From: Raillietiella orientalis
Lineage: Eukaryota
Reading direction: 5' to 3'
Length of the DNA stretch: 64,000 nt
Assembly: GCA_036172245.1 (NCBI GenBank)
Contig: JAYWIR010000004.1
Coordinates: 3,100,001 to 3,164,000, forward strand
In this document: positions 12,508-38,249 of the stretch, in pieces
Layout of the letters: every line of letters starts with the position of its first letter
How positions within the stretch are numbered: the first letter of the stretch is position 1
Program-made: the position numbers and the translations under genes
The notes under the pieces: generated by a model
The model's input: only the letters and a program-made list of their open reading frames with translations
Databases searched by the model: none
What the model was told of the DNA's origin: nothing

Positions 12508-12528
12508 TCTGTTCTCATCAGCTTAATA
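12508..12528 (+). ncRNA. U2 snRNA fragment (retrotransposon target remnant, not a full gene)
   Basis: TCTGTTCTCATCAGCTTAATA closely matches the recalled U2 segment TCTGTTCTTATCAG(T/C)TTAATA that follows the branch-recognition sequence GTGTAGTA. Confidence 0.75.
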
Positions 12529-12699
12529 AGTGTTCTTGCGGTGTTTCCTGTGTTCTCAGAGTGTTTTCGTTTTGTTACCTTGTATTAACTTGTGTTCCCT
12601 TTGTGCTGTTTTGAGCAACGCCTGCAATACTCTTGGAAACAGGAAAACAATTGCCTTGCTGCTTCCCGTTGCGTGGAGACAATCTCTCTTCTCCGCTGG

Positions 12700-13720: not shown

Positions 13721-15999
13721 ATGGTGAAGTTCACGTGGTCCCTCTCTCCTCCCCGCACACCACTCTTTTGTTGGAAGGGGATTTCCCGCGTGTCCCTCAT
13801 CTGCCGAGAGACTTCATCCAGCATCCGGTTCCGAAGACCACGTGTGCAGAAGGTTGCCATGCGTTCGCCTGTGTGGCAAGTCCACCGTCTTAGGAAACCC
13901 CGTACGCATGCACATGCGCAGGCATCGAAGACACAACAACACGAATAGGACAACGCAGTCCCTCGTCGATGGTCCTCCTCCCTGCTTCTTCTTTTCCAGC
14001 AGCAAAGAGGCAGGGCAGGCCATCGTCCCTCTGCTCGCTGTGGCATTGGAACTTTTGCCCGCGGGCTCAGAGGAGGGAGGTCCCTAACCCATCGGGGAGC
14101 AAACTCCGCTCGCGGATGGGTCCGAGCCCGGACCTGTTCTCAGGCAGTTGGGGAAGGGGTCGCTTCGACTCCGGGTACTCTGCACATCCAGCAACGGGAC
14201 GAGTCGGGATGAGGGAAGGGGGGGTCAGCACGCCTGTCCCGCCCAAGAGGGGAGGTCTGTCGCCGTTGGTTCGACCAGAAACAAAGTGGACGCCGTCGGT
14301 CCTGTCCATCCCTTGTCCAGTCCTCTGTCTCCCTTTCCCGAATTCCCGATAGTGCCCGCAAGAGGTGGGGATGTTTCCGACTAGGACGAAGGCAGCTTGG
14401 AGCAGCGTGGTCGCATTGACCCGTAGGAGTTGCACCTGCCACTGCGCCCTGAACAGGGAATCGGGGGGGTGGCGACGGACGCAGAAGAAGAGAAACCGCG
14501 GACGCCTGGGGTCCTTCCTCGAGGTTCGCGGGGGACAGGGGTTTGCCAGGAAGGGAAGACTCTGAGGGCGCGCTTCCGGAAGCGAACGGATGCTCGGTTC
14601 AGATCGGCCAACATCGGAGCGGGTGTGACGATCCAGTGGTGGGCGGGATTGACTCCTCCCTACGCGCGGAGATCCCATCATTCTGGAAGCGCCCAAACGC
14701 AGCTCTCGCTGCTGCAGGGCATTTGCACTTGATGACTTGTACAGAGCGTACCTGTTCAGATGCTGGTGGCCGTAAAAAAAAAAAAAAAAAGGGGGATGAT
14801 GGGACAAACAGCAGGGAGGGTCGGTGGAGGGAAGAAGTGCGGAAAGGACTACGAGAACCACGGCGGGGGTCAAGCTGCCACGACGATGGCAGTGCACTTG
14901 GTGGTGGCGAATTCCCGCGAGGCTCCGCAGGAAACACGCAGGTGCACCTCCGCCATGTTTTGTAGATCGGCGAAACCTGGCGGGGCTCCGGAGATCCACA
15001 CCAGCTTGGATCCTCCCCGCCCTGTCTCCAGGGTTTCTTACAAAGGAGCGGAGGGGAGGTGCAAAGCGACAACACCCCACTTGCATCAGAAATCGCTTTT
15101 CTTATCGGAGCCCCCTTCCTCCTCCCTGCTGTAGGGTGGTGGAGCAGCGAGTGTTCCTGTTGCCACGTCTTGGATTAGAACGCGGTCCAAGTGTACCGGG
15201 ACACCCAGGTGCAAATGGCGCAGGGTTCCCCTAAACGGGAGAAACAGCTGACCTGAAAGTGTTTCGATTTGTACTGAAAGAACGTGCTGGTAGAAGAGGG
15301 AAGGGGACGGGGACGGGGGCGGGGGCGGGTGAAGAAGGAACCTTCCCCTTCCCAATCCATCGGCGTCTCGAACGTTCCAAATAAGAACGAAACGCTTCTT
15401 TGCCAACGCGCACCTGCGCGGTACGGCGGGCCAGCGCAAGGAGGCACGACGACGCACACTCTCCCTCCCTTCCCCACCGAGAAACACAAGGGATGGCGTC
15501 ATGTCGCGTCGTGGGGAAGCACCGTGCATCGAGCCGTTTGTCGCTCGCCGAGGAGCGCATGCAAGAGACTCTCTCCCGACTGCCGCCATCTCCTCGTACG
15601 AGGGGGCTCGACGCGAATCGAGTGCCACTGCGCGCCTGCAAGCCAAGGCGAAGAGGAGGAAGAGGGAGGAGGGGATCGCACGCGCGAGAGGTGCGGGATC
15701 AGACACGTCGTTCTCGAGCATCGCAGGCGGCGCAACGGTCTGACGGTGAACCAGGTCAAAAAGACGACGTGGGAAAGACGGGGGGCCTGCCACCAGCCGG
15801 GTGCAACCCCGGTTGAACCCGAAAGCAGGCGCCTCCTGACGGAGGCATCATCCCGGAAGGATTCGGGAACGCAGCACTGTCTTCGGGAAGCGCATAACTT
15901 GGCGGCGGCAGCATCCCGGAAGCTTCGCCGCCGCTAGCATCGTCTCATCGCTAACGTAGGAGAGTTTTCAGGACTTCGCCCAGGGGGAATGCGAAGCGA

Positions 16000-17750
16000 G
16001 TCTCCTCAGGGAGACCACTAATACAGCCGACTCGAGAAGACCTTGGGTCATCGTGCGCAAAAACAAAAACAGCACACGCAGAATGCCCGCTAGTGGCCTG
16101 GCCACTACCTCCAGAGTTCCCACCGGATGAGGCGTGGAGTTCCAGACTTCCGTTTCCCACATCCGTGCGCATATTTCTCCTTCCTTCCCTCCCCCGTCCT
16201 TCCGGATTAGGGATGCGGGCTGCCTCCGAGACCGAAATAGGGAAATGGGATGGAGGAGGCGGGCGCCAATTGCCATGCGGACTTTCCTCCTCGGCTGCGC
16301 CCTCACTCGCCCGTCTTCCGACAGGAAACGGGACTCTGGCACTCCCGTTTCGTGGCTCGCACGAGTCCTCGTCCGAGTGAAGGTAGACGTACGCACGAGG
16401 GGAGGAGGGGGAGAATTTGTGAGGATTTCCCATTATCTCCACGACCGATCGTTTCCCCCTCCATCCCGTCCTCCTGACGACGACTGTCGGTTGCGTCACC
16501 ACGGCTAGAGAGCGACCCAACTGGTGGTTGCGGCGAAGATCCCGGGGTGTGTTTAGTGTTCGAGTCGGTTCGTATCCTTCCTGATCTGATCCTCCCATCG
16601 CCTAGGGAACCGAAGGATCCTCCCATCGCCATTGTTGCTGGATCTCGTGATGCCGAGGGCCTCAAAGGGAAGGTGTCCTGAGATGCATCAGCGACCGCAC
16701 GCAGGATGTGTTCTTTCCTCGGTCCGGAAGCTTTGTGAGAAGGAGGGGTCCATGCCGTCTCGCATCCGAAGCGCTTTCTTGCTTTCTCGTGCGGGCCGAT
16801 CCAAGGTCGAGCCTCTAAATGGTGGTCTTCGCCTCTTTCTGTTCGAACGTCCACCCTTGCCTGCCCACCGTGCTGATGTCGCCGCTGGACCCACCCCATC
16901 CTCCTTCATCCCATCTGGACTCGAATCTTCCGAAGTCTTGATCCTTCGGATGCGCCTGTCTCTCTTCTGAATCCCCGGGCGTCTGCGCAGGCGCGTCTGC
17001 GCTAGTCCGCCCTCGAACGATGGCACCCATGGATGCCCTCACGGTTGCCGCCGGCAGGTCGTGCTGGGCGCGTTTCGTGGGCGAGGTGCCACCCTGGGTC
17101 CCTGCGACGTCTCAGCTCTTGACGCGCTGGTGATTCCTGGAAAGTGAGGACGGAGACCTCCGATCACGTGGTGCGCGGGGTCTGGAAGGCCGGTTTTCTC
17201 CAGGGTGCCCCATCAACCAACTGACCGGGGTGCTCTTCGCTCAAGTGGCTGGGTGGGGCCGAGTCTTCCTCTGTCCGTCTCAGCCGTGTGTCACGTCGTC
17301 AGCGCGAATCGGGAAGGCAAGACTCGGTAGACGGACTCTGGGGACCCTCCCGTCCATCGCCCCGTGGATCTTGCCGGAAGGCATTCCGGAAAGGTGGGCT
17401 TCCAGCGCTACCCACCACAGAGACCCTTTTTCTCTGTTCCCGCGCGTAGATCCAGATCTGCAGCGCGTGCGTTCCTCGAGGACGCGAGCTCCATATCTCC
17501 CCTGGAGAATTGCTCCGCCACACGGAGGAGTTTCCCGAGGCGCGCGCGGCGAATACAGTAGAGAGGTCCAGGTTGTGCCAATCCTCTGCCGGCGCGCTTC
17601 CTCACGCAAGACCCACCGGAGCAGTGGACTGGCGCATCCCTCGGCGCCCCGGAGGGTCGCTTCGCGAGAGGCGCGCTCACGCACGACGATGTCGACTCCA
17701 TTCCACTCCCCACCCTCACCCCTCCCGTTCCCCTGATGCACCTTTCAAGT
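16000..17750 (-). mobile_element. Highly degenerate L1/Tx1-type reverse transcriptase fragment
   Basis: ORF 17280-17741 reads STRGNREKGSL..VALE...IHG......LAFPIRADDVT, matching the order GVRQG.PLS..LE..YADD. A GGSG motif occurs further downstream at ~16110. Confidence 0.45.
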
Positions 17751-20700
17751 CTTCGAGGCGTGGTCCGCCAGAAAGGCGGTGGTTGCTATGGGAGATGGGG
17801 TATCCCCAAGCTTCATGCTGCTCAGACGGACAGGGATGCAGACTCCGCCCCTCATCTCCCCTCCCCTTACCCCGAAGCTCTCCCTCGAGGGGGTCCACAA
17901 GAGAAGGCCGAGCCACGGAACCGGATGGAGCCTCTCCGGCGGAAACGGCCGCCTTTCCTTCGCGTTTCGTTCGCTCGCCGGCCGCATGGCAGCGCCCTCC
18001 GCTCTTCGAAACTCGTGGCGACCCGACAAGCGAACGGACCACCTCCGGTTCCCAGTGCTGCAGGACTCGCTCGCCGTGATGGATAAGCAGGAGCAGAGAG
18101 CGCGACGGAGCGGAGTGGGATGACCGGCGCTGACCAGCGGAGGAAGCAGCGGGAGAGCGGGGGTTTGCTCAGGGAAGCAAAGTGGCAGCGGTCGGCTAAC
18201 AGCGCCTGCTGCTGGCACGACGGGACGGGAGGCAGTCTGCAGGACGCCCTGGTGCCGGGAGGAGGCAGACGCTTCGTGCGGAGGCGTGCACGCCGTGCGG
18301 CGACGCCTTTGTTTGTTTCGTTTTCGAGACAAACGTTCCCGCTCCCCCTGCGTCCCGATCGTTCCCCTGCGGTGCTCCAGCGCTTTCCCTCGCTCGCCAA
18401 CGCGGGCCCTGCGGGCACGTGAGGCTGCTTTGGCTCCCACGTGCTCGTCTGCCGCCTCTGGCTCCCATCGCGCCGTCGCCAGGCGGGCGGAGGGTTCTCC
18501 TGCCTCCACGTGTGCTTCACGGGCGCGGGAGCAGCGGGGAATCCGGTCGCGAAGTAGGGAGGGGGAGGGAAGGAAGGAGGAGTCGGGGATCCACGCCGGA
18601 AAAATCCAACCGCGGTACGAAAGCGGAGATGCCAGCGCCATTTTGGGACGCTTCCCGCTCTGAACATGGCGGGAGAGAGGTGATCGTCGTCGCCGGCGTC
18701 GTCGTCGTCAGTGGCAGGGGAGACAGCCGGGAACCCCTCGCTCTGAGGGACGAGTTAGGATGCTGCCTTCAGGCAGCCGAGCAGCCCCATGGGTGAAGCG
18801 GAAAGGAAGGTGTATTGTGCTTTCCCCAGCGGATCTCCGGGAGCCTTCGAATCGCAACGCCCTTCCAATCAGTTCCCGTTGATACCTCATGCACCCTTCG
18901 CAAAGCACCAACGTTGCCACAATAGGAAGAATCCACGAAAGAAAATGGAAAAGGAAAGAGACGAAGAAAGGAGCATTTGGGAGGCTGCGGACCCGTACCC
19001 CTTTCCCCCTAAAGGCGCTAGCCGCGCCTCCGGAGGTCCCGTCTTAAAACCTGGAGAGTAACTCTGGAACATCGAGCAACTCTGGAAGCTGCGCTTCCGG
19101 GCTCCGTAACGGAGGATCGCGCACGGAAAGGCGCATCCCAGAACGTCTGTTCCTGGTAGTGTGCTCCTTGGGAAGCTCGCGGACTTTGCACATACGGAAT
19201 GAAAGGGGGGGGGGGGGGGGGGGAGCGAAGTGTGGACGACCGTTTTTTGCCTTTGCTCCGCCGGTGGGATGGGACGCAAACGGGACGGGATGAAACAGCG
19301 GATACACACATATTTGTTGTACGGTTCTCCCATTGCTTGATTTTGTAAAACAGGAGGAAAGGCAACGGCAAGCAGAGAAGGAGGATGCGCGCGCATCTTG
19401 GAAGGATGCCACGAGGAGGAGGAGGAGGATCCAAGAGGACCTCCAAAGAATGCGAGGAGGAGGGAAAGTCGGTTTTCGATGGAAGCCTTCCTAGCGCGGT
19501 CCGAATGCCTTCGGAAGATGGAAATGGGAAAGAAGACATTTATTTCACTTGCCTATGACCCTAACCGGCGATGGCCTCTCACGCAGGAGGGGGAGAAGGA
19601 TGTAACTGTGCTTGAAAATCACCGAGCATGGATGCGCGCGATGTGACTCTTCCGGTGCACATCACTGACGAGGGGGAATTCCCCCTCTAAGCATCCCATT
19701 AAGGGAGCAAAAGAACCTGGTGACCCCCCCCCCCCATTCCCTTAAGAAAGCTGCAATCTGCGAAGGGGGAGGTAGCGAGTTCCTCATTTAACGACCGAAA
19801 TGAAGAAAGCGGTTCTCAGGGGCGGCAAGAAACGCCTGGGAATTCCATCCCGAGGTCCTCCAGAGTCGTGTGCGATTCTGGCATCAGCCTCGCGGAGACG
19901 CTCCTCCTCGAAGCTGCGCTTTCGGGGTTCAGGTGTCCTCGGTGCGCCTCGCACGAACAGCCTCTCCGGGCCCTACGCTATTATTCTATTCCAAGTAATT
20001 CTTCAGGATAGGGGGCACCCCGGGATGGGGGTTCACCCTATGAATCCAGGAAGGGCTCGGAGTCCGTTCCTCTCACAACTCCCACCTTGGTTGTCTCCGA
20101 AGGGGACCAGTGTTTATGGACAGCTCCGCGCTTCCCCTGAAGCGGAAGGAACTCGGCATTGCAGTTTTCGCACTGGGCGATCTCATGCAACGCACGAGTC
20201 CACCAGTGGACGAGGGGGAGTGCGGCCCTATACTGTGCCAGGTGCGGGGAATGGGGAATCTTCCCGCACTTGTTGTTGGACTGCGTTGCTTCCTGAGTAT
20301 CCGGTAACACTTCGCTGTGGCCCTCCAACTTCCGATGGACAACGGCAGAGAGGTCTTGCGGTGCCTCTTCTCGCACAACTCGATGTTGCCTGCAGCTTCC
20401 CTCGCAGCTCCGTGCTGCCTTGCCTTAGTGGGATCGTGGAGGCGAGAAGGCGCGCCGAAAGAGGCCAGTCGAACGGTGAGGCCCGCAATCGCCTGCTCCT
20501 TCATGAGGGCGGCAAGATGCCAACAAAAGGAGGAAATTACCGACATCCTCCAGAAGATGCCGAGGACGCCAGGAAGAAATCCGTTCCCTTCCCTTCCCCT
20601 TCCAATATTTTTTTGTGTTTTTTTGTTTTTGTTTACCCCTTTCCCCACTCTTCCCGTGCGGACCTCATCGGGGGAGCTGTTCACAAGAAGCAGCGCCTCC

Positions 20701-23700
20701 GAGGCATCTCCCTTCGCAGTGGTGATGGGAAGCCATTACTAAGAAAGGCATTTTTTTTTTAATATTTCATGACTTTTTTTTGTTAATATTTTTTTTAAAT
20801 AAACGCCCCAGAGTGACCAGGCGGAATAAAAGGTTGGCTGGGTCTGCGGAGTGCATGGCACGGAAGCGGCAGACCTCATAGGGCGATACGAATGCGCGCG
20901 CAAGTGTTCCCAAGGTTTGCTCCAGATCTCCTTACGTCCAGACGCGCCTGCAGTTTCCCTGGCTTTAGTTAGCACACAGTTCTTCAAGATCCGGGCCACC
21001 TTATTCAAATGGGAATCTATGCGTTGTAAGTGAAGAAAATCATCTATGCGATCGTCGAGAGCCCCCTTGCAAGAACTCTTCCGTCTAAAGCAATTCCTCC
21101 GCCTTTAGCCTGCAGATGAACTTTTCAGCAGGCATCTCCTCCGGATGTGTAGGAAAGAGCATGCGAGGTGTCTTCGGGGTGACCCACTCTGATCTCTGAG
21201 GAATTTTCATTCGATATGATTAGGAATCACGATATCTTTAAGTGGGATTCGGATCCTTGGACCGAGGCGTCGCAGAAGGAACGAAAAACCCGACAACGCC
21301 AAAAGAGAATCACTTCTTCCTTGTTAGTTCAGGAATGCCAGTTTGGAGTTTCGATTAATTCTCCGGCTGAAGCTTCCCAAGCGGAGTGTGGTCGCGAAAC
21401 ATCCTGTTCATGGAATCTCGATTGAAAATATTCAGCCTTGTCGTTACAAAATAGGGAAAACGTTATTTTTAACGAAATTTAATACGGTTCCTATCCTATA
21501 CGACCTTTGCTTATTAACAATAAAGAAAACAAGGCGGACCCGAAGGCCTTTATGAAATTTTTTGCCACATATAATGAGAGAACTATTGTAGAACAAAGAA
21601 AACTTTCGATAGAGAACCCTCAGTTTCCGGACCACTCCGTTTTCCAGTAAAACTTACGCAAGCGGTCGTACCACAACACGTGTGCCACAAGACGGCAAGC
21701 ACATGCAATGAGCTCTCCAAAGTTCCCAGTTCTTAGCATCACTAACGGCGAGATGAAACGTACTGTCAAGTGTCGATTCCTCTTTGTAACGTTTTCTGGA
21801 TCAGAAACGACAAAAACGCGTTTTTTTTTTTGTTTTTGTTTAGCAATTTGCATCGATTTCCCCCCCCCCCTCCCCTTTCAAGATTCACCTAATAATAACA
21901 TATGCATGCATTCCGTTCTATCTGCACTCGTGCTGGGAAATGTCATTACACTGTAGCGATCACTCGCGGAATCGCAAGAAGCTGGGCGGTGAAGGGTAAT
22001 TCAGGAACGCGCTCAGGAAGTTCAAGGACACCACGTGTTCCACGAAGTTTAAAAATAATGATTTAAATGTGCACTTCGAAACGACGCCTTTCCAGAAAGC
22101 AGCGCGAGTTAAAGGAACAGGAAAATCGTGCAACGGTAGCCTTCAGAAGCGCTACTGAATGATCTACCCCCACCCCCACCCCCTAAACCAAGGAGAGCGA
22201 GAGGGGGGGGGGGAGAAGGAAATCAACGAAAGCTTCCGTTGCCACAACGTTAGGTAAATATCGGACCCGCGTGAGAAAAAATTCAAAAGCCGGCGCTGTC
22301 GAACCGCAGGAAAAACAAAAAATGCTACCCCTGCAAAAAAAAAAGAAAAAAAAAAAAAAAAAAAAAAAACGCGTTCAACATCCTCGTGCGCAAGCTGAAC
22401 GTCGTGTGGACTGGCAGAATGTCTTCCGAGTTCACTCGCAGGCGGGGGAGGAAGCACTGAAATTCTTTACCACCTTTTCCGTTTGAATGATTTTTGTCAT
22501 GAGGGCATCCAACCGATTTCCGAGTAAGTGAGCTCTGAAGAAATAAACCAGAATAAGGAGGATCCGCGCACGTCTTCTGGCAGAGGGGATAAAAATGTGC
22601 CGAAATCCTCGACGGTGGGACGCGTGCGTTCCAGGGAACGCCCGATTAGCATTTCGGCTTCATCATCATCTCATGCGAACACGAGGTGGTGACGAAACTT
22701 CAAAGGAAAGATTTTTTTTCAAAGAAGGGGCAACGCTGACTAAATAAAAGTGAAATGTTCACACCAGGCCGTTCACACTATGTAAAGTATTTCACATTTT
22801 GAATTTTGGCAATTTTTAAAATGAGGTCCATGAAGAGTTGCGTTAAGATTCACGTTATAAGCACAGAAATACTCTAAACGCATAAAACCCAACTTCACGA
22901 CATTTCAAAAAGTTGTAAACTTCCTCACTTGTCTAACCTCATTCATTCAATTGCTTCTTCTTTTTCTTCCCTTCCAATCAACACGTAGTGGTTACATTTC
23001 TAGAAAGACGAATGACTACATGTTGGTGGAAATCTCACTTGGAAACCGGGATTTTCACGAAAAACCCGTCCACCCGATCGAATGCTGCCAGGACAAAAAA
23101 AAAAAAACTCCGTCTTCACCAACGGGATGTAGCAGATGCACGTTCTGTGATTTACAAAACCGAAATGTGGTGGAAAGGTAAATTGAAGAGCTGGGAAAAC
23201 GTACCGTCAAACTTCGATGTGGTTTTTGTTTAGATAAGCAACGGGAAGAAATTTATTTGCAAGTTACAGACTCATCTTTGTGCTCGGTGTGCAAGTGCGA
23301 GGTGACGACGACATATGTATCGACCTCAACTGTAAATCATTTGGAAAAATTTCTTCAAGCCCCCAAGAAAATTCAGAATAATAATCAACACGAACAAAAA
23401 TGCATCGTTTTTCTATTCTGTATTCGCTCCTTTGGTTTACTGGGCTTTCGCTTGCAAGGAAAAGGTTCCCACGAAAAGGAAGGAACTGAAGTCCTTATTA
23501 GATGAGAGCCCACTCGAGATCGGTGTTTCGCTAATCGCCGAGAGACTGCATCGCACCTTTCAACCATTTTCAAACAGTCAGATAAATACCACGAAACTGA
23601 ATGCTTAAAAACTGGAAACTTTAAAATCGAGAACACTCGACTCTACACAACGCACTTCACCATCCACAGATCAGTCACCTCCACCTCTCGCTCTCGTTTT

Positions 23701-24006
23701 TGGAACTGAACCAGTTTGCATTACGAATGGCTTCCGAAATAACGGGAATCATTTTCATCATCTCATCTATTCGGTTCGAGTGATCGGCCCCACCTTCTCT
23801 GTTTGTTTCGCTCTTCGTTATGCAAATGAAGGCAGTTACGCAGTTGCTGGAGGATCAATCCCGTCCCATTTCCCGCACAAGGGGAACGAATTCCCGTTTG
23901 AGAAAGTAAACTCCACCATTCCGAGGAATGGCGGGGCTTTATTTCAATCGTGACAAATGTGGATATTCGAATGGAAAACCGGGCTGGAAGAAGAAACTCC
24001 GTGTTT

Positions 24007-25167
24007 TCACACTATGTTCCAATGGGCTCCAACACCATAATCGAAGATTTCATTTCGATTCTTCACCCACGAGTTTGGGACTCCAGTATACATGTCCCAA
24101 TCATAGCATGCCCAGGGGTTGATGCTTTGGTTACCCAATCTGAAGGTCTCTTTTCTCATCCGAAAACGGAAGGTGCATACTTCTTCTGATATTTGTCTGC
24201 CTGTCTGAGAGGTTGATTTGGCGTAAACAGATTCTTCTCCATACGCAACAGTTCTGTAGAAAGTCCATCCCTCCAAGAGTTCAGTTTCTGTCGTTAATGC
24301 TTGACTGATCGATCCCATGGCCGATCTTTGCACTCCTGAGACGTCACATTTGTATACACGCGATGCTTTGGAAAGATGACTTGATATCAGATACATTAAT
24401 GAGTGGTTCATTTCGAACGGATGAAGCGATGCCCGAAACGATTGACTGTAAATTCCACACATTTCTAGATTCTGGATTTGCTGTCTGGTAAGATGTAAAG
24501 CACGAAACCAGCCAACCAGATTTCTTGTAGGTAACCCAGGTGCTTTTCCACCTTCAATTTCAGGTCTCAAATTAGCTGGGAGGTTCCAGTCTGCTTCGAA
24601 GTCCTCTCCCGCTGGTGCAGTAGTCCTTTCGTAATCGCGCATTATGCGATAGGCTGCAACTCCAGGCGATGGTAGCGACTCATATAGAACATGACTTTGG
24701 GCGGTTATCTTGCCGAACCACCCCCCAACTCCTCCTTCTTGTGCCACTTCTGGCAACTTGGGGAGTGCCCATGTATATCGCTTTCCAGTGCTGTCTTCAA
24801 CATCTCCAATCGCGCGCATATACACTGCGAGTGGTTCCGGAAGCGATAGTCCGACACTGAAGAATTCTCGGAGTCTTATTTCAGGATCAGTGTCTACTCC
24901 TGAATGCATCCTAAGCATAGATGCTCTCGCCCAATAATGCGCTACTACATAGTAGTAGAACATGGAAAACGACACTGCCCTCTGAAATTGAGGATCTGCT
25001 ACACATAGCTTGAGGTAAACAGTTTGCGATAGATCCGGAAGCCCTTGGATTGTGTTCATAAACTTAGTTTCCCTAGGTCCAATGTTCCTAAGTGCTTCAT
25101 GGTTATCAGCCATGCCGTCACTGCTTCGCCTCGACCTTTCCATCTTCGTTCGCTGAGCACCATCCAT
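24007..25167 (-). CDS. Intronless 386-aa ORF resembling a partiti-like dsRNA virus capsid protein (endogenous viral element)
   Basis: ATG-to-TGA ORF with no stops, visibly more GC-rich than the flank at 25.2 kb. Motifs SMFYYY...YWAR, LPEPLAVYMRAIG, H.LYESLPSPGV, LPTRNLVGW and WAC....P..W..NRN recall capsids of arthropod partiti-like viruses. Recognised from memory. Confidence 0.7.
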   Translation of the reverse strand: MDGAQRTKMERSRRSSDGMADNHEALRNIGPRETKFMNTIQGLPDLSQTVYLKLCVADPQFQRAVSFSMFYYYVVAHYWARASMLRMHSGVDTDPEIRLREFFSVGLSLPEPLAVYMRAIGDVEDSTGKRYTWALPKLPEVAQEGGVGGWFGKITAQSHVLYESLPSPGVAAYRIMRDYERTTAPAGEDFEADWNLPANLRPEIEGGKAPGLPTRNLVGWFRALHLTRQQIQNLEMCGIYSQSFRASLHPFEMNHSLMYLISSHLSKASRVYKCDVSGVQRSAMGSISQALTTETELLEGWTFYRTVAYGEESVYAKSTSQTGRQISEEVCTFRFRMRKETFRLGNQSINPWACYDWDMYTGVPNSWVKNRNEIFDYGVGAHWNIV

Positions 25168-28055
25168 GTCTTTAGCCCTTAAGAGATTAAAAATGCTGGC
25201 AAATCATTTTCAAATTTTCAACATTTAACTATTTATTTATTAAAACAGCAAAGGGGGGGGGGAATTTAGATCACGTCATTTTGAAGAACAAGCAATCATT
25301 TAAGATTTGGTATTTGGTAGACCCTTTTAAGACCTTCAGCTGGCCTTCTAAGCGATATTCTTCATGATTGAAAAACCGAAAAACATCACCTGAATCCGGA
25401 AACCGCAATTATCCGAGTTCTGAAATTGGATTTGTTCCGATTAAGTGGAATGCACTTGATGAAACGTGACTGAACATGTCTCAAAGTGAATGCAAGACAG
25501 CATGACGATTTTCACAAATCACCCATTACCTGTTACGAGTTACAACGAAAATTAAGAGGGCGCATGGGTAATAGTGAAAATCGGGATAACAGACAACTGC
25601 CAATATGAACACAGTAGCGCACATCCACGTGGAAACAATTTCTTTCCATACAGATGAGTCGAAGTTTTCAAAATGATCTGTGTAGTTCTAAAGTGGCATT
25701 ACTTTGCTTGCATTTTCCAAAGCAACAAAAGCCACACTAATTTAATAAAAAGGTAGAAGACTACTTACGCCCTGTTCCTCGCTAGGTAAATGGAATGGGT
25801 AACTCGGTTTCGAGTCAGGAATTTTCGGTAACTAATTTAGAAGAGGTATTTCGCTTGAGGTTACATCGATTTTTAGTAGCAAATAAAGGAACTGAGAATC
25901 TGAAAGATAATTTATAGGACTACGGAAATCAGAATGCGGTACCCACACGCAATTGTGTGTACAACAACCGTGTTGGAACGATTTTAATGTCAACACAAAT
26001 GTGGAAAAAGCATACTGATATGAGGCGACATACAGTTCCCATTACTTTCTGTTTGCTTTGGCTGCTCTTAAGCCTTCAATGCAGGAAGTCGTTTTTCAGT
26101 ATGGTTACATTTTACTTTCGGAACTATTTGTGTGCAGACTTAACGTGTTCTAACTTTATTCTAACGAAGTCATTCCTGATCTCATACTCTAACAAAATCG
26201 ACCCTATTCTAATAAAGAAATCGGTAAACTTGCAAATCTCCAGTGTTGAGATCGTAGAATAAGACCCTCCCTACTCTCCATCACTTCGGAAAACATGAAA
26301 AAAAATACATTCGCAGAAAAACCACAGCAACCAACAGCAACCATCACTTCGTTCTAATTCACTTCATTTTAAAAGTGGACTTTTAAACATTTCTGGCAAC
26401 GAATTAGATGGTTCCTTTTCAGAAGTCAAAAGAAAACGGAAGTTGGAGGAGTGTAAAATATTCTACCTTTACGATTTTTTCTTTAATTTCATTTTGCATT
26501 ATTTAGAAGAAATACTTTAAACATAGAAAACTCAGACATCCAGAAAATACACCTCTTATTAATGCAATTAATGAACTTTGCGATTAGCTGTCTGAAAGAC
26601 TAGAGAAGAATGACTGAAGTAACGTTGTAAGGGAAGAAATTTGCGTTTCGGTAATGGTAAACAAAGATGCTCATAATCAATAAATACATTAGCAGCTATA
26701 TATGATAGACAATTTCAAGGAGATTCAGATTCACATGTTCCAATTATTTGCCAAAACAGATGCAATAAACATGGCTACTGAACTGATAATCACCACCATT
26801 TCCCTTCAAATTTCACGATTCACGTGTTTATTACAAAAAAGAAAAAATTATCACTTATGAATTTAACCTCTCCAAGTTTAGAATGCAGGCCATCGTTTTA
26901 TATTGATGTTTCTCTATGTCTGAATGAATTAAAAAATTATTGTTACTTTCCACATATTGCAGAATAAAAAAAAAATGCATTTTTCCTTTTATTTTTGACT
27001 TAAGACGCATTGCAAAGGGGCATTACAGTATCTTACTTATACTCGAGCTTTTATCTCACCCGAAGAACTTCTCAAGAAATCCTAAAAGTGCTTTCATAGT
27101 TTTCTGTCTATACAGTCCCATAACCTGTATTACATGGCTTACAGAGACTATGATACAGGAGATGCTGAGCACATTGTTGATTTCACCATATTTAAATGTC
27201 ATGTTCTTGCGTAGCCATATACTATATCCTCACAGATGCAACTTTTCTTCCTCCTGTAAAGCGCAATCAATCCTTCCTCTTCAGGCGCGTTTTTTGTTTT
27301 CCTAGGCTTCAATGAGGCAGAATTTCAAAATCAGACTTGCCAATTCGTAAAATGATCGCAAATGTCAAAACGGCAAAATATGAATAAAGAAACCGAGCAA
27401 TTTGAATACCGAGAAACGATAAAGTTAATGAAGCCTTGCTGAAAGCATTTGCTGTTGACTTGTGATGTGCTTCTTACTTGTTAACTCTTTCAGTGCAATC
27501 TGTCAGATTTTAAACTCGGAGCATTTGAAGGGAAGATAACGTACTGCACGAATTCTCAAGACTGTACAAATGAGGATGAGTGCTCGTTTGGAGAAATGTT
27601 TCAGGAGGTTACTATGAAAAAATAGTGAGTTCATGCCAGCTCGGAAATCATGAATTGGTACATTCAGAATTTGGAATCTTGCAAACACCTACAAGAATCC
27701 AACATGCTTACCGCAACCGTCACATTTCTGCGGAAGTTTTGAATCCACCAGACGGTGACTCGGGCGCAATGCACCGCGATTCACATCGTTTTCAAATAGG
27801 CAGCAAATGCTCAGTTCGCGCGTCCTTCAATGTTACAAAAAAAAAAAAGGAAAAAACCGGAAAAACTGATTTGTATGGTTATGATGAACAAATGGAAAGA
27901 AATATTTTTCTGATGTGTTGATGGCAACCTGGATCGGATATCCCTGAAAAAAAAAAAAAAAAAACACTGGTGGTAACTAACACAAAACTGATATTTCTAG
28001 ATTCCTTTTTGTTTGAAATATATTGTTTATGCCGTCTGTTACATGTGACAAATAA

Positions 28056-29082
28056 GTGTTAGCAAAATTAGATGCTGAAATACGTGGCAGAAATGCATCC
28101 AGGATCATAGATGTGAAAGTGTTTCATGAATGTTGTTTAATGTCTGGAGGACTAACCATGGACGAATTATGCAAATGCCGAGATCAGCTACGAAAGGCGC
28201 ACAAAATCTATGTGACAGTAAGTGCTCAAATTAGACAATTCTGTTAGACATTTTCCTTAGCACAGATTGTTACTGCATTACTTACTGGAGGTGAAAGAAG
28301 AAATCAATGAAACATCTTTGCAGCACGAAGAAAGCAGTGAAAATCTCATTGTAGGTACAAAGAAAGTGATTGCTTAAATTATTTCTTTTCCAGAGGTCTT
28401 TAGATTTTTCTAATGTCAAAACATCAAACAAACAAGTTGTTCCCTCTGAGCAGCTTTTGCAACTTTTGCACTGTAAATTAATGTGTGATAATAATCAGAT
28501 GTTGGAGTATGTAACACACAAAAGAATGAATACAAAAGATAATGGACAGATTTTGCTCCAGTTGGTAACCAAACAGAAACATCAGTGGGAAGAACAGCTA
28601 GAAAGAAAATTAGAACAACTGCATCAGCTTCAGAGACTGCTTCAAAAACAGAATGAACTCTTTGAAAAAATACATGTTTTAACCATTCAGCATCAAACGC
28701 TTCAAAAAACTGGCTGGTTACAGGAACAAATTGCTCATGAAGACCATTTAATTATCAAGCAGCAAGTGCTACACTGCAAAGCCAGGTGACCCATTTTTAT
28801 CATATTCTCCACTTTAATCATGCTTTTAGGATTTTACAGCTTGAATGTTTACGTGAAACTTATAGTGAGATAGCATTAGAAGCTTTAAGGAGACTGCGCG
28901 GCAGCCTCTGTACTGCCAAACGAGCTGACAGCCTTAAATTAAAAAGTCTTCGAGAAGAACTAAATGCATATCAGAATCTGGGGCCTGCCATGACTGCATT
29001 GGTCAAGGAATACAATGCACTTCGGAAAAAAATATCTTCAAAGAAATGGGCAGTACAACAATTGCAATCTCAGAAACTATAG
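28056..29082 (+). CDS. HAUS4: HAUS augmin-like complex subunit 4-like. Exons ~28056/28140-28217, 28261-28350, 28394-28785, 28830-29082; true start unresolved
   Basis: Three GT-AG introns of 43, 43 and 44 nt join the frames. The C-terminus LRETYS...LNAYQNLGPAMTALVKEYNALRKKISSKKWAVQQL matches the HAUS4 pattern (DTY...L..Y..LG..F..LV.EY..L......KWAL). Confidence 0.8.
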
Positions 29083-31427
29083 TTTACCCACATCTTTGAA
29101 ATACATTAAAGTACCCTTCCTATCTTTGAAGAGTACAGGATCTGCACGAAAAGAAACTGTCTTGAGAGGCATATGGTTAAAAGCATGAACCAGTAGATTA
29201 ATACAGCTGGAACGGACCATCATATGGTTCTCCTCCACACCAACTTCTTGCTTATTACATGTAGAACACTTGAACCTTTTCCTTGGAGTGACTTTAATAG
29301 GTGGTTTTCCTGTCATATTAGCTATTAAGAAGTTCATGGTGATATCTTCACAGTTATGTTCCTTATCTACCCAATTACGAATAGATGCTGGTAACAACTT
29401 GGTGTAAGCATAATTCCAGAACTGCAGAGTACAATACAATAAATACATAGTGCAGAAACTACCTTGTGATAAAATGCAGCTCCTGTCAGTACCATTGACA
29501 AGTCATTTGTCCAGTTGGAGTTATAATAAAATTGTGATCCTTTCTTTGTATGCACTCTGGATGGAAACCCAACTAGCCTATCAGGATATTCTCTCCATAC
29601 CTACACAGTGGCATTAACAAGTGACCAACATTTAAAATACCTCATAAGCAAATTCCAATTCATCAGCAGTCAACATGCTAATATCATTATCCAGGGACAA
29701 AATAGCCTCTGTCTCAATGTCCTCATATGGGAAAAAACGATTACTTAATTTATTCTCTGCCATATGGATTATCCTGACTGGATGATCCACTTGTGGCCAT
29801 AATGAACCTGGCATCTTACAATTAGCACAACTTTTTGCAAGACTTACTTGGTGGAGGTGGTTTATAAGGATTATTCCATATAACAACAATCCTGTCAAGT
29901 GAGGAAGCTTTGGCAACACTAGAAATAACTTTAAATAAGGAATCAGAATTATCATACACCGAAATCACAGCTGTGAAACCTTGTGTTCGGGAAACACATG
30001 TTGGCATCACAAATGGAGAGGTGCTTGCCTCCTAGAAAAGTGAGACATCCACAAAAAGCTTTGAGAAAGCATCGTTTTTACGAGTTTAGGATCGCTGTTC
30101 CAGCGTAGGATGCCTTGAGCTTGCTCTGGGAATAGGCGATCATTGAGGATTTGTAAGGTAGTTTGGACAATAGCATCAATTGAGCTGAAGTACCGTTTGA
30201 AAATGCGGATAATATTCTTCTTCATTTCTTTTTTTCTGCCAGCACTAATGGCACAGATGTGATTCATTAGCTCTGGAAACTGCTGTCTGCTAAGTTGCAC
30301 TGAGGCTCTAAAGAAGATAATCTTCCTGGGATTGTTCTGTATTTCTTACTGTTTCCAGTCAATAATGTCTTCAAAAGGAAGGACATGCTCGTCTCCTATG
30401 AGAATAGGGATGCAACCTGCATAAAGCACATGATATAGCATGAGATATGTCACACCATTTGGATACAAAATGAGGCAGAATTGAGCTTGCTAGATCTGCA
30501 ATGATAATTATGGGCAGAGATGCAATAATTCCATACCTGCAATATTTTCCAGTAAGAAAACATGCGTGTTCCCATGCAACGCTTATCATAGTCTTTTCCA
30601 GGACAAAAATGTAAAAGCAAAATCTCGTTTTGATGCTTACTGTGGAATGCAGCTATCAACTGAATCCAACTATCAGGAAGATTCATGTCAAAGAAAATAA
30701 TCAACTGATATTCATGAAGATCATGGTGTGCAAGGGCATCTATATTGTTGCTTCCAAGATAGTTGTACACAGGAAGTGACACATCAAAACCATTACGATA
30801 CACTGCAAAAGTTAGGCCACCTCCAGCAAGAATTGCATGCCCAGAAGGCACCGAAAAGTAATTTTTTTTAGGGTTGGGCAAGAAATTAAATAACAGATGA
30901 TTTTCTCCTCCATTCCAGCTACAAAAAAGCCCAGACAACATAAGTGCAAAGGTTTATAAAAGATTCACTCACTGGGGAAGACTTGCTAAAATGTGACTGC
31001 TGATTTCTGTAGGTATGTTACTTTCTTGCAACAAATCTAAACTAGGTACAAGTAAACATGCTTTGGAGGGATTGTCAGTGTACCATGCACTGTTCTTGAT
31101 GGATTCAATAATCTGTATAAACTCATGGGAATACGAGATATTGACTTCTCCAATTAATGGATACACATACACACTCAACTTATGCTGATCATGGTACCGA
31201 CAACGATGTATGTTCAAACAAGAGTAAATAGTGCAATTTGGGTTAGTAGGTGTAAACACAAGGTCTTTAGCTGCAAATGTGGGTGACCCTTTGGATTTAA
31301 AAAAAGGTATGTTTGGACTTCTGGTATACACTTCAAAAACTGTAAATAGGAGGATGCCAGCTATGCCCAGCCCAGCCAGAAGATTCCTCTGGTAAGCTAC
31401 CCAACTCTGGAGAGAAATTCGGCACTT
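29077..31427 (-). CDS. EXT2: Exostosin-2-like glycosyltransferase (GT47+GT64). Exons 31427-30973, 30918-30537, 30489-30350, 30307-30082, 30031-29848, 29807-29641, 29600-29463, 29421-29077; start codon not in the visible exons
   Basis: N-terminal TM segment [16 protein letters not shown]; motifs [102 protein letters not shown]. Seven 40-54 nt GT-AG introns keep the frame. Confidence 0.93.
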
Positions 31428-31514: not shown

Positions 31515-33057
31515 TTAAGATATTGGGGGAGGAGGATAAAACTGTTTGATTGGAGGTCCAACTGTAACAGGAGGAGGAGGATACACATGAGGAGGAGGAG
31601 GAGGATAGAAAGACTGCTTTACATTTGTTGGTAGTGGTTGGTTGGGAACTGGAGGAGGAGGATATTGTGTATAAGAACTGAATTGAGGTGGTGGAGGTGG
31701 ATGATGTGGAAGTGGTGCAGGAAAAACTGGTGGGGGTGCTGCTGGAGGGAATGTCTGAGCAGGAGGATACAAAGTAGGTGGGGGTGCAGGTGGAGGATAA
31801 GGATATGGATACTGAGGTAAAGAGGCAGGAGACTCTGTTTTGACTGAGGCAATTTCAGACTTTGTTTTCCCTTCCCCTTCTGCTCCCTTTTTGTTTTCTT
31901 TCCATACATTCTTACTGGATGTAGCTAGTGAAATATAAATCAAGTAGCAGCAGTTATAGATAATTTACCATTTGATGGGGATGAGCATGATGAAGAACTT
32001 TCTGCTTTCACAGGAGTTAAGTAGAGAGGAGGGGAAATCACCTCTCGTGGATGGCTCTGAGTAGTATACAGATCAAGTACCTGGTGACAGATATCTACCA
32101 GACTATTTTTCAGACCTTTTATTTCCCACCTTCCAAGAGATCTAATGATAAGTCATCCACAAACATATCCCACCATCTATTATGCCGAGTGTTCCTCCCC
32201 ACCCAATCTACAATTTCGAATTTTGATAATTTGCTTGCCAGATACATTAAAGCAATAGCTATGATTTCTGGCTCCCATTGCAAGCATAAGGTAGTGCACA
32301 AACTATCGTTGATAAAAGTCCATGCCATTTGAACCATTTTTTCTAGTTTTTTCTTATCACCTTGAAAAAATAGGCATTTCAACTTACAACTACAAAAATA
32401 AAACTCTTAACCTTTTAGAGATTTTGCATATTTTATCAAATAACCATAAGGATGATTAACTTGTAGATCAAACTTAATTGTCTGAAGCAAAACTCTCTCT
32501 AATGTCATCACTTCTTCCTGCAACATTATCATGGCAAACTCATTACATTTGAAACAATGAACCAACTTTTGGATTTCTCCCAAATTGCAAAAATTTATCC
32601 TCATTTAATAATTCATGCGCTACTTGTATTATTTGTTTGCATTTTTTGGGAGTTTCTTCTACCTTTCCTGCTAAAAATAAACAACAACATGCAGTAACCT
32701 AAAACAACATTTCAGATAAATAAAATAGAAGCATACAACTCACATATCTCGGAAAGTCCTTAAATGAATGAAACATGTAGAAGCGATGAAAATATGTGAC
32801 ACCAGTTGCCATGGTATCATATCTTCTACAGCAATTTAGGAAAAATATAAAGATCAAAAATGCATTAGAAAATCTCCCATAATTTTCCAAAGAGCGAACA
32901 AAATTTGATAAAGAAAAGGATACAATCCTAATTTGGTACCACTATCGATGATGAATCTAGCCCCTTCACGTCTATACCTACACTCAGTCTCATAATCAAG
33001 ACCATCTTGATTTGAAGGACTATTTTTTAGTTCCTTTTTATCATAATACCATGACAT
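31515..33057 (-). CDS. CCNK: Cyclin K. Exons 33057-32924, 32825-32744, 32698-32567, 32517-32412, 32360-32130, 32094-31969, 31924-31515
   Basis: Spliced product has [109 protein letters not shown] and a proline-rich tail. Confidence 0.96.
32826..32923 (-). other. U12-type (minor spliceosome) GT-AG intron in cyclin K, 98 nt
   Basis: 5' splice site GTATCCTTTT; branch-like TTTTCCTAAAT just before tgctgtag. Splicing restores [10 protein letters not shown]. Confidence 0.9.
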
Positions 33058-35189
33058 CTTAGTATTAGTTGGGATATATTATTTAACATATAATCAGGGT
33101 AACAGCAACCATTTTCAGGAAACACGTTTCACTTTACATCATTGTTCATTCATGAATACTAAAACGGCTGTCTCTGCAATCATTGACAATTTACAAAAAT
33201 ATGTCCAACACATGAGTAAACTTTACACATGTATAAATTCACAAACACTATGTATTGGCACAAAACTGAATGCATACATAAACTTGATAAATACGCGTAC
33301 GTGGCAAACGAAATATCCATAAATTAACTGATCCCTGAATAATCCTATTGCGTTGGGTTTGAATGATATTGATACATCACACATGCGACAACAATTAGCG
33401 AATCAGCAGATTGCAAATATTCTACATTGGCTAGTACCTTACACAATCTCATGGATTTTGGTATGCTTACTGTTGTGTGAGCGGTTTCGATAATTTTTGC
33501 AACAGATAAAGCACGTTGGCACACGATCCCAATAATGCAGTCCAAGCACACGCCACGTACAAATGCAAGGCAAGGATAAATTGCAACGGTGACACATATC
33601 CACAAGCCAAGTACAAAATGACAAGCATTCGCATGTTGGGAAATAAAGTACTTAGGAAAGTAGTACGAGAGTGTTTCCTGATCATAAATTCGTTGCAACT
33701 GCGAATCGAAGCTTTCAATCTGCTCTTTACGCAAAAAAAAAAAAAAAATCATTTCCATTTTTTCCAAGGTTCCTACACTCGGAATCCATTCCGGAAGCAC
33801 ATTTTCAATAGAACAAAAAGGAAAACGTCCCCCATTTCTTTATTAGCAAAATAAATGTGCATTATACATCGGAGTAGGCAAATAGTAAATTATACTTATA
33901 TTTTTGAGTTAGCTATACAAAGTGAGGAGTAATTTCACTTCTGCGAAACTTTTTCCGTGCTAAAACACTGTAACCCCTCAGATATTTTTTTTCTAGCAGG
34001 AAATGGTTAGCAAATACATTCTGCAATGGATGTAACCTGAAAAACTTTTCGCAAAGAGTTTCGAAATATTTTCGAGGAAAGAAACTGAAAAAATAAATGA
34101 AGTGCACTTCTCCCTAAGATAAACTCGATTTATTGGGGATATGCTAAGAGGAAGGATCTTTCAAATCGATTGCATGAAAAAAACAAAATTACATAATTTA
34201 AATGTCATAAGCAAGTACTACACGGGTCATTTGATCAATTAAATCAATGTCAAAACAAGACTTTGAGTTCTGGCTTCTTGTTTACTTAGAGTATGATCTA
34301 TATATCACGATATTCCATATAACCGGAAAGATTGATACTCGGTCAGCAAATTATCTATCGGTAAAATTTTTTCACATTATGTAAGGATACAATATGAAAA
34401 AAAGGTCCCTATGGCATTGGACTCTGACAGTTCCATCCATAATTTATAATCATTTTCATGTATCTTAATGCATCAGTTTCATCAGTACTATTTCCATACT
34501 TATTCACGAATCGAACCTCTTTTTCTCACCTTCGATAACCTTACATGCATCCACATCATTATATTAACTTTTGCTACATTCAGTTGTATACCTCATTGCA
34601 ACTGCTATAGACAAATGATAAAGGAACAAAGAAACTTAAGGAATCTGTTTATATTGTTTATGATTGTTCTCTCTTTTTATACTGTTTGCAAAATTATATG
34701 ACCAGATGATACATCTTTTGTTTTAAAATATGCTCTTCCATATCTCTTGAAATTTCCTAAAATTTGAAAGTTCAAATTTTCTAGGTACTCTTTATGCCAT
34801 ACCTCACAAAATGGATTATATAAACCTTTTTTCAGTCTACTTATTTGATGCCTATCTTATAATAATAGGACCTAACCAATCAAGACGTTTATTTATTCTA
34901 TAGTTTTATATGGCAAGGCAAAATCTGAGATTTCAAATACCAAATTTGCATCATTCTAGATCAAAGGAACAGTGCGTAAATTCGAAAGATACATCTTGAC
35001 AGAATTATAGGTACTGTTATTCGAAATTTTCTCAGAGGGTTCCTGATTTTTCCAAAAGTTCCAAAATGCCATATTATTTAAGATTCAAATGTAATTCAAA
35101 TGTCTGAATCTGTTATCGTTAAATTGTTTGGTACCTAGGAATGTAGCATTTAAGTAAACACTGTTATCATTAAAATCTTCCCCTCGAAA

Positions 35190-35395
35190 TCACTTTACTG
35201 GTGCTTTTTTTGTCATATTAGCTATTGGAAATTTCATGGCGTTATTTGCATAATTGACTTTGTGAAATGGCAAATTGCTGCTGGCAGCAATTCTGTGCAA
35301 GCACAATTCCCAAACTGCAGAGTACCACACAATGAACATATGTGCCGCAGAAACTACTTTGTGATAAAATGCAGTTCCTGTTATTCCATAGACAA
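35190..35395 (-). pseudogene. Partial duplicate of the EXT2 3' exons including the intervening intron
   Basis: TGTAFYHK|gtagtttctgc...tactctgcag|...MKFPIANMTKKAPVK parallels 29290-29500. It is frameshifted and partly deleted. Confidence 0.85.
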
Positions 35396-38249
35396 GACTG
35401 CTAACAGGATAAATACTTCTATCAAAATTCACAAAACTTCATCCAAATACGAGTCATCAGCATGAAATTGCTTTACTGTTTAACAGTTTCCGTCTCTTAG
35501 CTATATTCCAATTATAGACAGAAAATGGATGAAATACTTAATTTCTAACAAACTAGACAAATTAACTAATCTCAATAATTTTACTTTTTAGTTGGTTTCC
35601 ACAGTCATTATGGCCAAAATGTTCAAAAGATGGAATTCATGTTCCTCATGTTAATCGTTTTTAATACGTCAGAAATGTGTCAGTATTACAAATGGCATAT
35701 GAAGTAGTATTCGGCATTCATCATTCCTGAATTATAAATGAATAACAGAGTCATTAAGATAGAAAAATTAAACTTATAAACTTATTAAATATAATATAGA
35801 TTATATTAATATTTACTAATGTTGGGACTAATAATATCCCACTTTTATATTCAGCTTTAAATGTATCCAGAAAATGACTTTAGAAAATAACTTGATTTTC
35901 CCTACATTCCTCCAATCATGAAATGAACATGTAACATATTCATCTTAAATAAGGAACGAAGGAACCGGTCTAAGAGAAATCGGTCTAACAGGAATGCAAA
36001 AGCCTAACGTCTCTCTCGGTCTAAGGGAAATCGGTAAATCATTAAGGAAATTAAGTCAGGAAGTCAAAAAAGCCAACCATCAACAACAAAGACCATGAGA
36101 ACAACACAAAGTAAAGGCTTCGAGGACTCTTTGAGAACCAAAGGCATCCATCCGTTTTGGCGAAAAAAGGCAGAAATCATATGCTCTTTCTCATTACTGC
36201 TCTCTGAACAAGGACCAAGCACACCACAAAAGGCTGCATAGAAGCTGTACGAATTTTTCTCATCAAGAAGATTACTCAACAACAAAAGAATACAGTAGCA
36301 TAAAATAAAACCACAAGAGCTCAAGAAACTGAATTTTCTGTGCTGCATTTCGTGGAAGCAAGATCAGATGAGGAATGCTTTTCTGTTAAGCAGATTGACA
36401 AAATGAAATTTTGTTGTAAAGTTTATGGTGCTTCTGTGTGCTCAAAAATAACATGATCAGAAAAAATTTGACAAGAAAATAATAAGCTTTGCAAATAACT
36501 TGATTTGCATCTCTCAAGAAATATAAGGAAGGTTGCACAAAATAGTTTGATGAACCAGGTAAAATGTGGTAGCAGACAGAGTAAGCAGCGTACAAGACAT
36601 AGAATCAATATAAAACTTTCAATTTCAACTTTTCCTTGCGAGACAAGAGAAGAAAAAAAACAGAGACCACAGAAATTCCTCTTTGTAATGTTTTGGGTAT
36701 CCCCAAGGTAGTGCTCCTAATGATAGTACCATGGTATTTTTCATCCCATCATGGCTATTTACTGGAAGTATCGGATGTGATTTAGTCTTCCCTGTCCTTT
36801 TCATCCCCTTTACACGCTGCTGATATTTTTCCAGATTTGAATCAAATGTTATTTTTTTTAAAAAAAATCACCAATATTGCCATGCGACAGAAGTTAACGA
36901 ATGTTCTTTTTGTGACTTTTACAGGAAGACAAAAATAATGATTAATTTAATTAAGAGAAGGGCCCGAGATGAGATTCTCTTGTTGCCTGGAGGTTGATGA
37001 GGAGCAAATCATCATATGACATCCAAATGTCTGGAACAATTGTATTCTTTGTGTTCTCATCTAAGAATACGAAAACCGTCATCAGAAATTTCACTAAATC
37101 TTACCTCGCAGTATCCAGAAGGTTTCTCAATAGCAAAAGGTTACCAGGTAAAGATTCAGCTACATGTTGAATCTTACCCAGAGCATAAAAGTTCGTGCCT
37201 AGAATGCAAGTGGCTCTTCCATCCCGCTCACATTCTGGTCCAAGAAACTTAGGACGTTTCGAGAGACGATAATAAAGTACTCTGCGTTTATTGAAGTGAG
37301 CTGTAGCAACTGTACGAGGAAGAACTGGAATAGAAATCCAGCCAATCGACACGGGAGACCTGAGTTGAAATCGGACGTGAGAAAGGAATTTGCAGAATAG
37401 GAAGAGAAAAAAAAATATTTACAGTAGTATAGAAAGTTGGGATCCGTCTCTAAGGGTCTCTGCTATGCAAGCTCTACTAAACTAAAGAAGGAAATCCTGT
37501 ACTGGAACTATTGATGTAGCATTTTCACGAAACGGAAGTAATCTCAGGAAGAACTGAGAGAACCGTTCCAAAGATGCGTCCGTCTGGATCTCTACTGATT
37601 TCCCACCCGCGTATCATCTCAAGCTTTTTGCCTTCTATTTGATTTGATTTACCTGTCACGAGGAAATGAAAAGGATAAGACTGTCGAAATCGAGGAATGA
37701 ACAACGAAGTTGGGATACCACACCCGAAAGTCGCATCCAGTCTCAAGCAAATAGTAAGATTCCTATGAAACACCTGAAAAGATCTGTGGGGATTCCGGCA
37801 TTTCTTTGCAAGGGACGATTTCTCTGTCCCTTGAAGCTCCCATTCACTGAAATCATCTTTCTCGTCAGAAGAGAGGAAGAAAAACTTTCACATCACAGTC
37901 TACGTTCCTTGGACTACGCCATGTTAAAAAGCAATACTGGATTCAGGCAGTCATGGATTCCGACGTCAAGGAGACATTGCCTAGTGTTCGTGAGCAAGAG
38001 CTCTTATTTAGCCTTCTGGACAAACGTGAAGAGCAAACTAATCCTCGGAACTCCGATAAAATCCTCCAAATGATAGGGTACTTCGGAACCAGAATCATGG
38101 GAGTCAATGGCCAGAGGAGATGAACTTTGGAGTAACTGCATTCTTGATTTTCCCAGTCCCCAGAGGGGTAGATAAATTTATTTTCCATTCACACACTACG
38201 TACACATTCGTTCAAATGGGGGAGGGAGGTCACAGAATCACTGTTCGCT

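Follow-up and report, generated by a model that had tools for sequence, protein, structure and literature searches.

The window, by which is meant the whole stretch of DNA that was analysed, is one contiguous 64-kb sequence containing zero N, and its minus strand carries an ORF that runs from ATG to TGA with zero interruptions within 386 codons. A first-pass annotation had described a 1161-nt stop-free, intronless ORF, which was recovered at exactly 24007-25167 and for which the strand (minus) can now be specified. The stop-to-stop frame to which it belongs (24007-25203, 398 codons) ranks second in length among the 111 frames of at least 120 aa in the whole window, and only two ATG-ORFs of at least 80 aa, the capsid-like ORF among them, occur within 22000-27500. 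The ORF, its parts and its immediate surroundings are as follows.

24007-25167, minus strand: the ORF of the putative EVE, 386 codons and a TGA stop in a single frame, without an intron-like break
24010-25077, minus strand: capsid-homologous core, ORF residues ~31-386, corresponding to positions 70-412/415 of the 442 in the family profile
25078-25167, minus strand: N-terminal 30 codons, including three Met, rich in Arg, Ser and Lys and unalignable to relatives
25204-25206, minus strand: in-frame TGA, 12 codons upstream of the ATG
23938-23943, minus strand: AATAAA hexamer, 63 nt downstream of the stop codon

The GC content falls from 0.48 to 0.33 directly upstream of the ATG (25175-25324), which suggests that the 5' edge of the insert is located near the in-frame TGA. 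The first 30 codons would be either the remnant of a short viral N-terminal arm or flank sequence that has been recruited, and the AATAAA hexamer may possibly serve as a polyadenylation signal.

Pfam scans were applied to all 334 stop-to-stop frames of at least 75 aa in the window, and parts of four host genes were located in this way.

28741-29079, plus strand: last part of HAUS4
29080-31427, minus strand: EXT2 (Exostosin-2), GT64 and GT47 domains
32122-32406, minus strand: cyclin T, C-terminal domain
50918-53454, minus strand: cathepsin, a papain-family protease

The nearest host exons begin 3.5 kb from the ORF, and the ORF and HAUS4 are divergently oriented across the 25.2-28.7 kb stretch; the upstream exons of HAUS4 were not located by Pfam. 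The EXT2 exon shares at most 59% identity with any database protein, with beetles, mosquitoes and an isopod at the top of the list, which makes the host an arthropod with no closely related sequenced species in that database. A segment at 35174-35396, which is 72.5% identical to part of the EXT2 exon (29273-29502) and on the same strand, appears to be a diverged EXT2 duplicate or pseudo-exon ~6 kb away. Elsewhere in the window there are high-GC blocks (54-62%) at 1-6000, 12001-20000 and 44001-48000, the rest having a GC content of 31-49%. These blocks contain many long overlapping frames on both strands, which lack a Pfam match except for a weak one to Fibrinogen_C at 4193-4702. Two segments at 1334-1582 and 4221-4471 are 77% identical in inverted orientation, and a 323-nt direct repeat (54872-55194 and 59524-59846) has copies 4.65 kb apart that are 99.7% identical. 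No Rfam families were found in the window.

Traces of retroelements are also present. There are two sub-threshold RVT_1 fragments at 7127-7692 (plus strand), and a 476-aa frame at 9382-10809 (plus strand) resembles the zf-RVT clusters of non-LTR elements, with an atlas score of 0.95 that is to be taken as a lead only; a fragment of this frame, 72% identical, lies on the other strand at 38326-38530. The retroelement traces found in the window lie 13-17 kb from the capsid ORF. The first-pass annotation had set the ORF between a decayed field of transposable elements and host genes, and of this picture the host genes hold, from a distance of 3.5 kb, but the retroelement traces are not adjacent. 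Searches for repeats and tandem repeats and a self-BLAST gave no TSD, LTR, poly(A) tract, second copy or repeat touching 23000-26500, and the capsid copy is single within the window. It had also been claimed that the window contains no RdRp, and indeed none of the 334 frames of at least 75 aa yielded an RdRp domain in the Pfam scan, so that at this frame length the RdRp segment is absent from the locus, as it should be for an EVE.

The identity of the ORF was established from sequence and from predicted structure. A phmmer scan against 1.84 billion representative proteins recovered 446 relatives of the ORF at E<=1e-3, of which 193 also passed E<=1e-10 and 27 E<=1e-30. Among the full-length relatives P0004 ranks first; it is a protein of 490 aa from a 1538-nt contig, and its residues 112-463 align with residues 36-386 of the ORF at 47% identity; because this homology reaches E 3.4e-104, the ORF lies far beyond what chance could produce. 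The similarity extends to a deposited capsid, since P0129, entered as 'MAG: putative capsid protein [Partitiviridae sp.]', matches the ORF alone at E 1.9e-14 and the family profile at E 1.7e-108. When the source contigs of 30 relatives were looked up, 19 were found to be 1379-1913 nt long and to encode one protein of 415-571 aa, which, to judge from their size, is the layout expected for the capsid segment of a bisegmented partiti-like virus. Another eight proved to be gene models from named insects, on contigs of Mb scale (Parthenolecanium corni, Microctonus aethiopoides, Eretmocerus hayati, Nomia melanderi, Belonocnema kinseyi, Diachasmimorpha longicaudata/Diachasma alloeum, a second D. alloeum gene and Brassicogethes aeneus), and the remaining three came from contigs of 2.8, 6.2 and 34 kb. 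A word-indexed search gave P0002 as the sole match to the ORF, with P0129 appearing as well when the profile was used. The Pfam scan of the ORF returned zero families, a sequence search of the PDB with either the ORF or a 43-sequence profile gave noise only (E ~0.65), an ESM Atlas search with the ORF gave no usable match, and nothing was found among IMG/VR viral contigs with the ORF as a single-protein query.

One deposited label points elsewhere. P0085 (AXA52550.1 / UXD80053.1) was deposited as 'putative RdRp [Linepithema humile partiti-like virus 1]', in conflict with the label of P0129, and the family was therefore tested against the RdRp Pfam families. Not one of the 94 family members, P0085 included, matched an RdRp or transposon family, and the only Pfam matches among them were two single-member noise matches. 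The ORF contains no GDD motif, and against the capsid family profile P0085 reaches 400 bits, a value to be read with the knowledge that P0085 is itself a row in that profile. The RdRp label of P0085 looks like a deposit error. Membership of the ORF protein in a cellular or transposon family, or its origin as a fragment of a partitivirus RdRp, can be practically dismissed, being contradicted already by the Pfam scan of the family and by the comparison of the predicted structure with solved chains described below.

An AlphaFold2 model built on the 94-sequence alignment had a mean pLDDT of 93.6 and a pTM of 0.91; a single-sequence model was useless (pLDDT 33). The core at 24010-25077 was modelled with pLDDT >90 as a partitivirus capsid fold, and uncertainty was confined to the first ~30 residues, in which block means were 52-67. 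In BFVD, a database of predicted viral structures, 46 models matched at E<=1e-3; TM reached 0.89, and the Verdadero virus capsid and Galbut virus Orf1 were among the matches. Of the top 50 BFVD rows 30 are named: 27 carry capsid, coat protein or CP in the name, and three are Galbut virus Orf1 (twice) and one uncharacterised fragment; nearly all of the named matches are thus partitivirus coat proteins. Foldseek against the PDB gave no match at E<=1e-3, but the top five rows were nonetheless partitivirus capsids, and when an aligner independent of Foldseek was used to compare the model with 48,161 solved chains the partitivirus capsid fold was again found. Through the high-confidence model, a clade of insect-virus capsids not represented in Pfam is also tied to the partitivirus capsid fold known from solved structures.

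The assignment of the ORF to a partiti-like capsid, made in the first-pass annotation, is borne out by the 446 sequence relatives, by the P0129 capsid, by the 46 BFVD matches and by the predicted fold. Comparison with viral capsids in both sequence and structure led to partiti-like capsids, and no closer cellular or transposon family was seen. It is highly probable that 24007-25167 is a partiti-like capsid EVE, that is, a non-retroviral element in which the greater part of the capsid gene of a partiti-like dsRNA virus of arthropods is preserved as DNA.

An important consideration is how well the copy has been preserved. Against a family profile made from 93 relatives, with the query left out, the ORF scored 365 bits, the match running over its residues 31-385 and over positions 70-412 of the 442 in the profile. 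Per residue this is 1.03 bits, whereas the 114 proteins covering over 300 positions have a median of 0.83, even though most of them were favoured by having contributed to the profile. The majority residue is present in the ORF at 29 of the 32 columns with conservation of 80% or more (member median 0.90; rank 25 of 69) and at 55 of the 60 with conservation of 60% or more (rank 4 of 69). Given the high profile score and the retention of conserved columns, there is no sign of neutral decay in the ORF.

The ends of the protein give a different impression. After the conserved core the ORF has one residue, whereas all 93 relatives that span the core have 17-109 (median 26), so that it ends at least 16 residues earlier than any of them. 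The stretch preceding the core is 30 residues long, where the relatives have a median of 72 and 11 of the 93 have 30 or fewer. A profile search of the three minus-strand frames over 23401-26200, with X placed at stops, found no capsid remnant beyond the ORF or in a different frame, which is weak evidence and says little because the missing arm and tail are poorly conserved. The gene had been called intact, and this is correct in that the frame is open and undecayed; it is not correct for the protein, which stops one residue past the core and lacks the tail that every one of the 93 relatives has. The ORF does not encode a full-length protein with N-terminal arm and C-terminal tail, and is a capsid-derived gene rather than a complete viral capsid gene.

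It might be asked whether the capsid sequence is in the chromosome at all, or whether the assembly fused host DNA with viral cDNA, or other sequence derived from RNA, of an infected specimen. The junctions are those given by the assembly, the TSD or poly(A) tract that might mark an integration was not seen around the ORF, and the GC content of 46.5% in the ORF exceeds the 37.7% of the upstream flank. Nevertheless, such a chimera is very improbable. At the level of the assembly the ORF is contiguous with host DNA on both sides, in a 64-kb stretch free of N with host exons on one side and a further 24 kb of sequence on the other. To our knowledge dsRNA viruses have no DNA stage, and they are not expected in a DNA assembly. 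Moreover, the copy lacks both ends of the capsid gene when compared with its nearest relative, no RdRp domain occurs in the frames of at least 75 aa, and the same kind of insertion is found on Mb-scale contigs of eight other insects.

The open frame also bears on the age of the insert. Of the 3474 possible point substitutions in the ORF, 185 (5.3%) would create a stop. In a neutral simulation restricted to substitutions (2000 replicates, kappa 2) the probability that the frame was still open was 0.58 at a neutral divergence of 1%, 0.32 at 2%, 0.076 at 5% and 0.006 at 10%, and at 15% or more the frame was open in none of the 2000 replicates; indels would shorten its survival further. Such low neutral survival means that the insert is either young or kept open by selection. 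The alternative posed in the first-pass annotation, a recent insertion or a retained gene, therefore still stands, with the frame undecayed and its neutral survival p=0.08 at 5%. Base composition gives no date for the insert, neither GC3 (42% in the ORF, 29-38% in the neighbouring host exons and 50% in the cathepsin exon) nor CpG setting it apart in time from the host exons.

On balance we lean towards an insert that is young and has not been co-opted as a protein. Its most likely state is that of a fairly young copy, with less than ~5% neutral divergence since integration, in which the frame has not yet been broken. Insect partitiviruses are reportedly transmitted vertically, and retroelement enzymes reverse-transcribe viral RNA into chromosomes. 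On this general knowledge, since no integration signature was found, it is proposed that a partiti-like virus persisted in the arthropod germ line, and that its capsid mRNA (coat protein, dsRNA2) would have been copied to DNA by the reverse transcriptase of a retroelement and joined into the chromosome. A tail shorter than in all 93 relatives is as expected of an arbitrary fragment. Any present effect of the copy is more likely to be exerted through small RNAs than through protein.

Several observations sit less comfortably with a young neutral insert. The frame covers the whole of the homologous region, an ATG stands at the apparent 5' edge and AATAAA follows 63 nt past the stop, a combination that would look like a working gene. 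In addition, the genomes of two wasp genera carry relatives that are still 86% identical to one another, which shows that hosts can keep capsid genes of this family. Confident dating is also hampered by the fact that the nearest relative is only 47% identical. The gene-like frame and the wasp copies also favour a second explanation, in which the capsid copy has become a host gene that yields a protein and whose frame is maintained by purifying selection. This must be regarded as a less probable, though by no means negligible, account of the locus. In its favour are the 386-codon frame with its own ATG, the confident modelling of all structured parts, the retention of conserved sites on a par with viral members (29 of 32 and 55 of 60, the latter the fourth highest of 69) and the unlikelihood of neutral survival (p=0.076 at 5% and 0.006 at 10%, before indels). 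It is further favoured by the eight of 30 relatives that are gene models on insect chromosomes, by the full-length copy shared by two braconid genera and by a plant precedent, ILR2, as far as the partial sources available describe it. Against it are the missing C-terminal tail and the N-terminal arm of 30 residues rather than the median 72, and a young neutral insert explains every observation equally well.

If the gene was co-opted, it might act as a capsid decoy, co-assembling with the capsids of related partiti-like viruses that are passed on vertically and thereby poisoning them, or it might have some other host role. The partitivirus shell is icosahedral, consists of 120 subunits and is built from capsid dimers. 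The more specific proposal that a tail-less shell domain has been kept as a host gene, which dimerises with the capsids of vertically transmitted partiti-like viruses and blocks their assembly, is considered rather unlikely. On this reading insects would have recruited partiti-like capsids repeatedly, the window holding one such case, and a supporting observation for that wider pattern is the conserved braconid copy, with its signal-peptide-like leader, that is common to two genera.

Whether young or retained, the element records a past germ-line infection of an arthropod by a partiti-like virus, and one of a lineage that is barely known, because the nearest sampled relative shares no more than 47% identity. 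EVEs seldom retain a capsid frame that is open and undecayed, which makes this one a good candidate for a simple test of co-option.

The relationships of the ORF were analysed with a quickly computed ML tree of the 69 members that are nearly full length, from which 25 rows that are shorter or partial were excluded. The ORF is sister to P0004 (SH-aLRT 99), with P0005 next (92), and has an end branch of 0.69 compared with 0.44 for P0004. The copies from Microctonus, Eretmocerus, Diachasmimorpha and Brassicogethes fall in four separate parts of the tree, amid sequences from short contigs, a scatter that would fit repeated independent endogenisation.

The insect gene models in the family have a variety of architectures. 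P0027 (Diachasmimorpha longicaudata XP_063973200.1) and P0160 (Diachasma alloeum XP_015113855.1), of 431 and 432 aa, are 86% identical and in both a hydrophobic, signal-peptide-like leader replaces the viral N-terminal arm; the pair has the appearance of a partiti-like capsid that is conserved, domesticated and possibly secreted. In P0059 (Diachasma alloeum XP_015109837.1, 942 aa) the capsid domain, at 563-907, lies behind a long low-complexity region rich in Ser, Thr and Gly, which is probably the source of its annotation as 'nuclear pore complex protein DDB_G0274915'. P0003 (Parthenolecanium corni KAK7580160.1, 1976 aa) contains ~16 tandem repeats of a capsid fragment at a spacing of ~110 aa, matching ORF residues from ~108 to ~265; in this scale insect a piece of the viral gene has multiplied into a chromosomal array. 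P0021 (Nomia melanderi, 817 aa) and P0024 (Belonocnema kinseyi, 719 aa) are RefSeq models with two tandem capsid copies each, the Nomia gene having several annotated isoforms.

Among known systems the closest are viral. Verdadero virus, Galbut virus Orf1, Orestiada partiti-like virus and the ~1.5-kb contigs such as that of P0004 belong to the same sequence family as the ORF, and the capsids of arthropod partiti-like viruses share its predicted fold (BFVD TM 0.72-0.89, E 1e-16 to 5e-34). In contrast to these, the window copy is chromosomal DNA near host genes and not a ~1.5-kb RNA segment, it has no RdRp partner nearby and, compared with P0004, it is without ~76-80 N-terminal and 27 C-terminal residues. 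The solved capsids of Atkinsonella hypoxylon virus (8phh), pepper cryptic virus 1 (7ncr), PsV-F (3es5) and PsV-S (3iym) are only 7-9% identical to the ORF. They gave no sequence match in the PDB search and Foldseek E values of only 0.02-0.5, and the ORF therefore represents a distant clade within the partitivirus capsid fold.

Partiti-like capsid EVEs, some of them open, are known from the black soldier fly, ants and other insects, according to the parts of the published accounts that were available. The PartitiEVEs of the black soldier fly are described in the available portion of one report as capsid-derived, 44.6-54.8% similar to Atrato partiti-like virus 2 and orthologous across three assemblies (PMC9231314). 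For ants, the accessible text of another lists five capsid and four RdRp Partiti-Picobirna EVEs, including the Vollenhovia emeryi EVE10 capsid copy, which is stop-free over 412 of 475 aa (PMC6540820), and in Bombus the corresponding excerpt gives 32 Partitiviridae-like insertions, mostly polymerase-derived (PMC12922265). As these partial sources present them, the Hermetia illucens PartitiEVE and the Vollenhovia emeryi EVE10 are of the same kind as the window copy, being capsid-only insertions of ~1.0-1.4 kb, but they are in other hosts and apparently arose by independent insertion. ILR2 and the other CP-like genes of plants are, in the extracts available, likewise partitivirus coat-protein genes in eukaryotic chromosomes that are annotated as host genes; they differ from the window copy in their alphapartitivirus or betapartitivirus origin and in that function and expression have been documented in plants. 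Capsid-derived partitivirus insertions have thus already been catalogued in both insects and plants, and the copy in the window is a further case.
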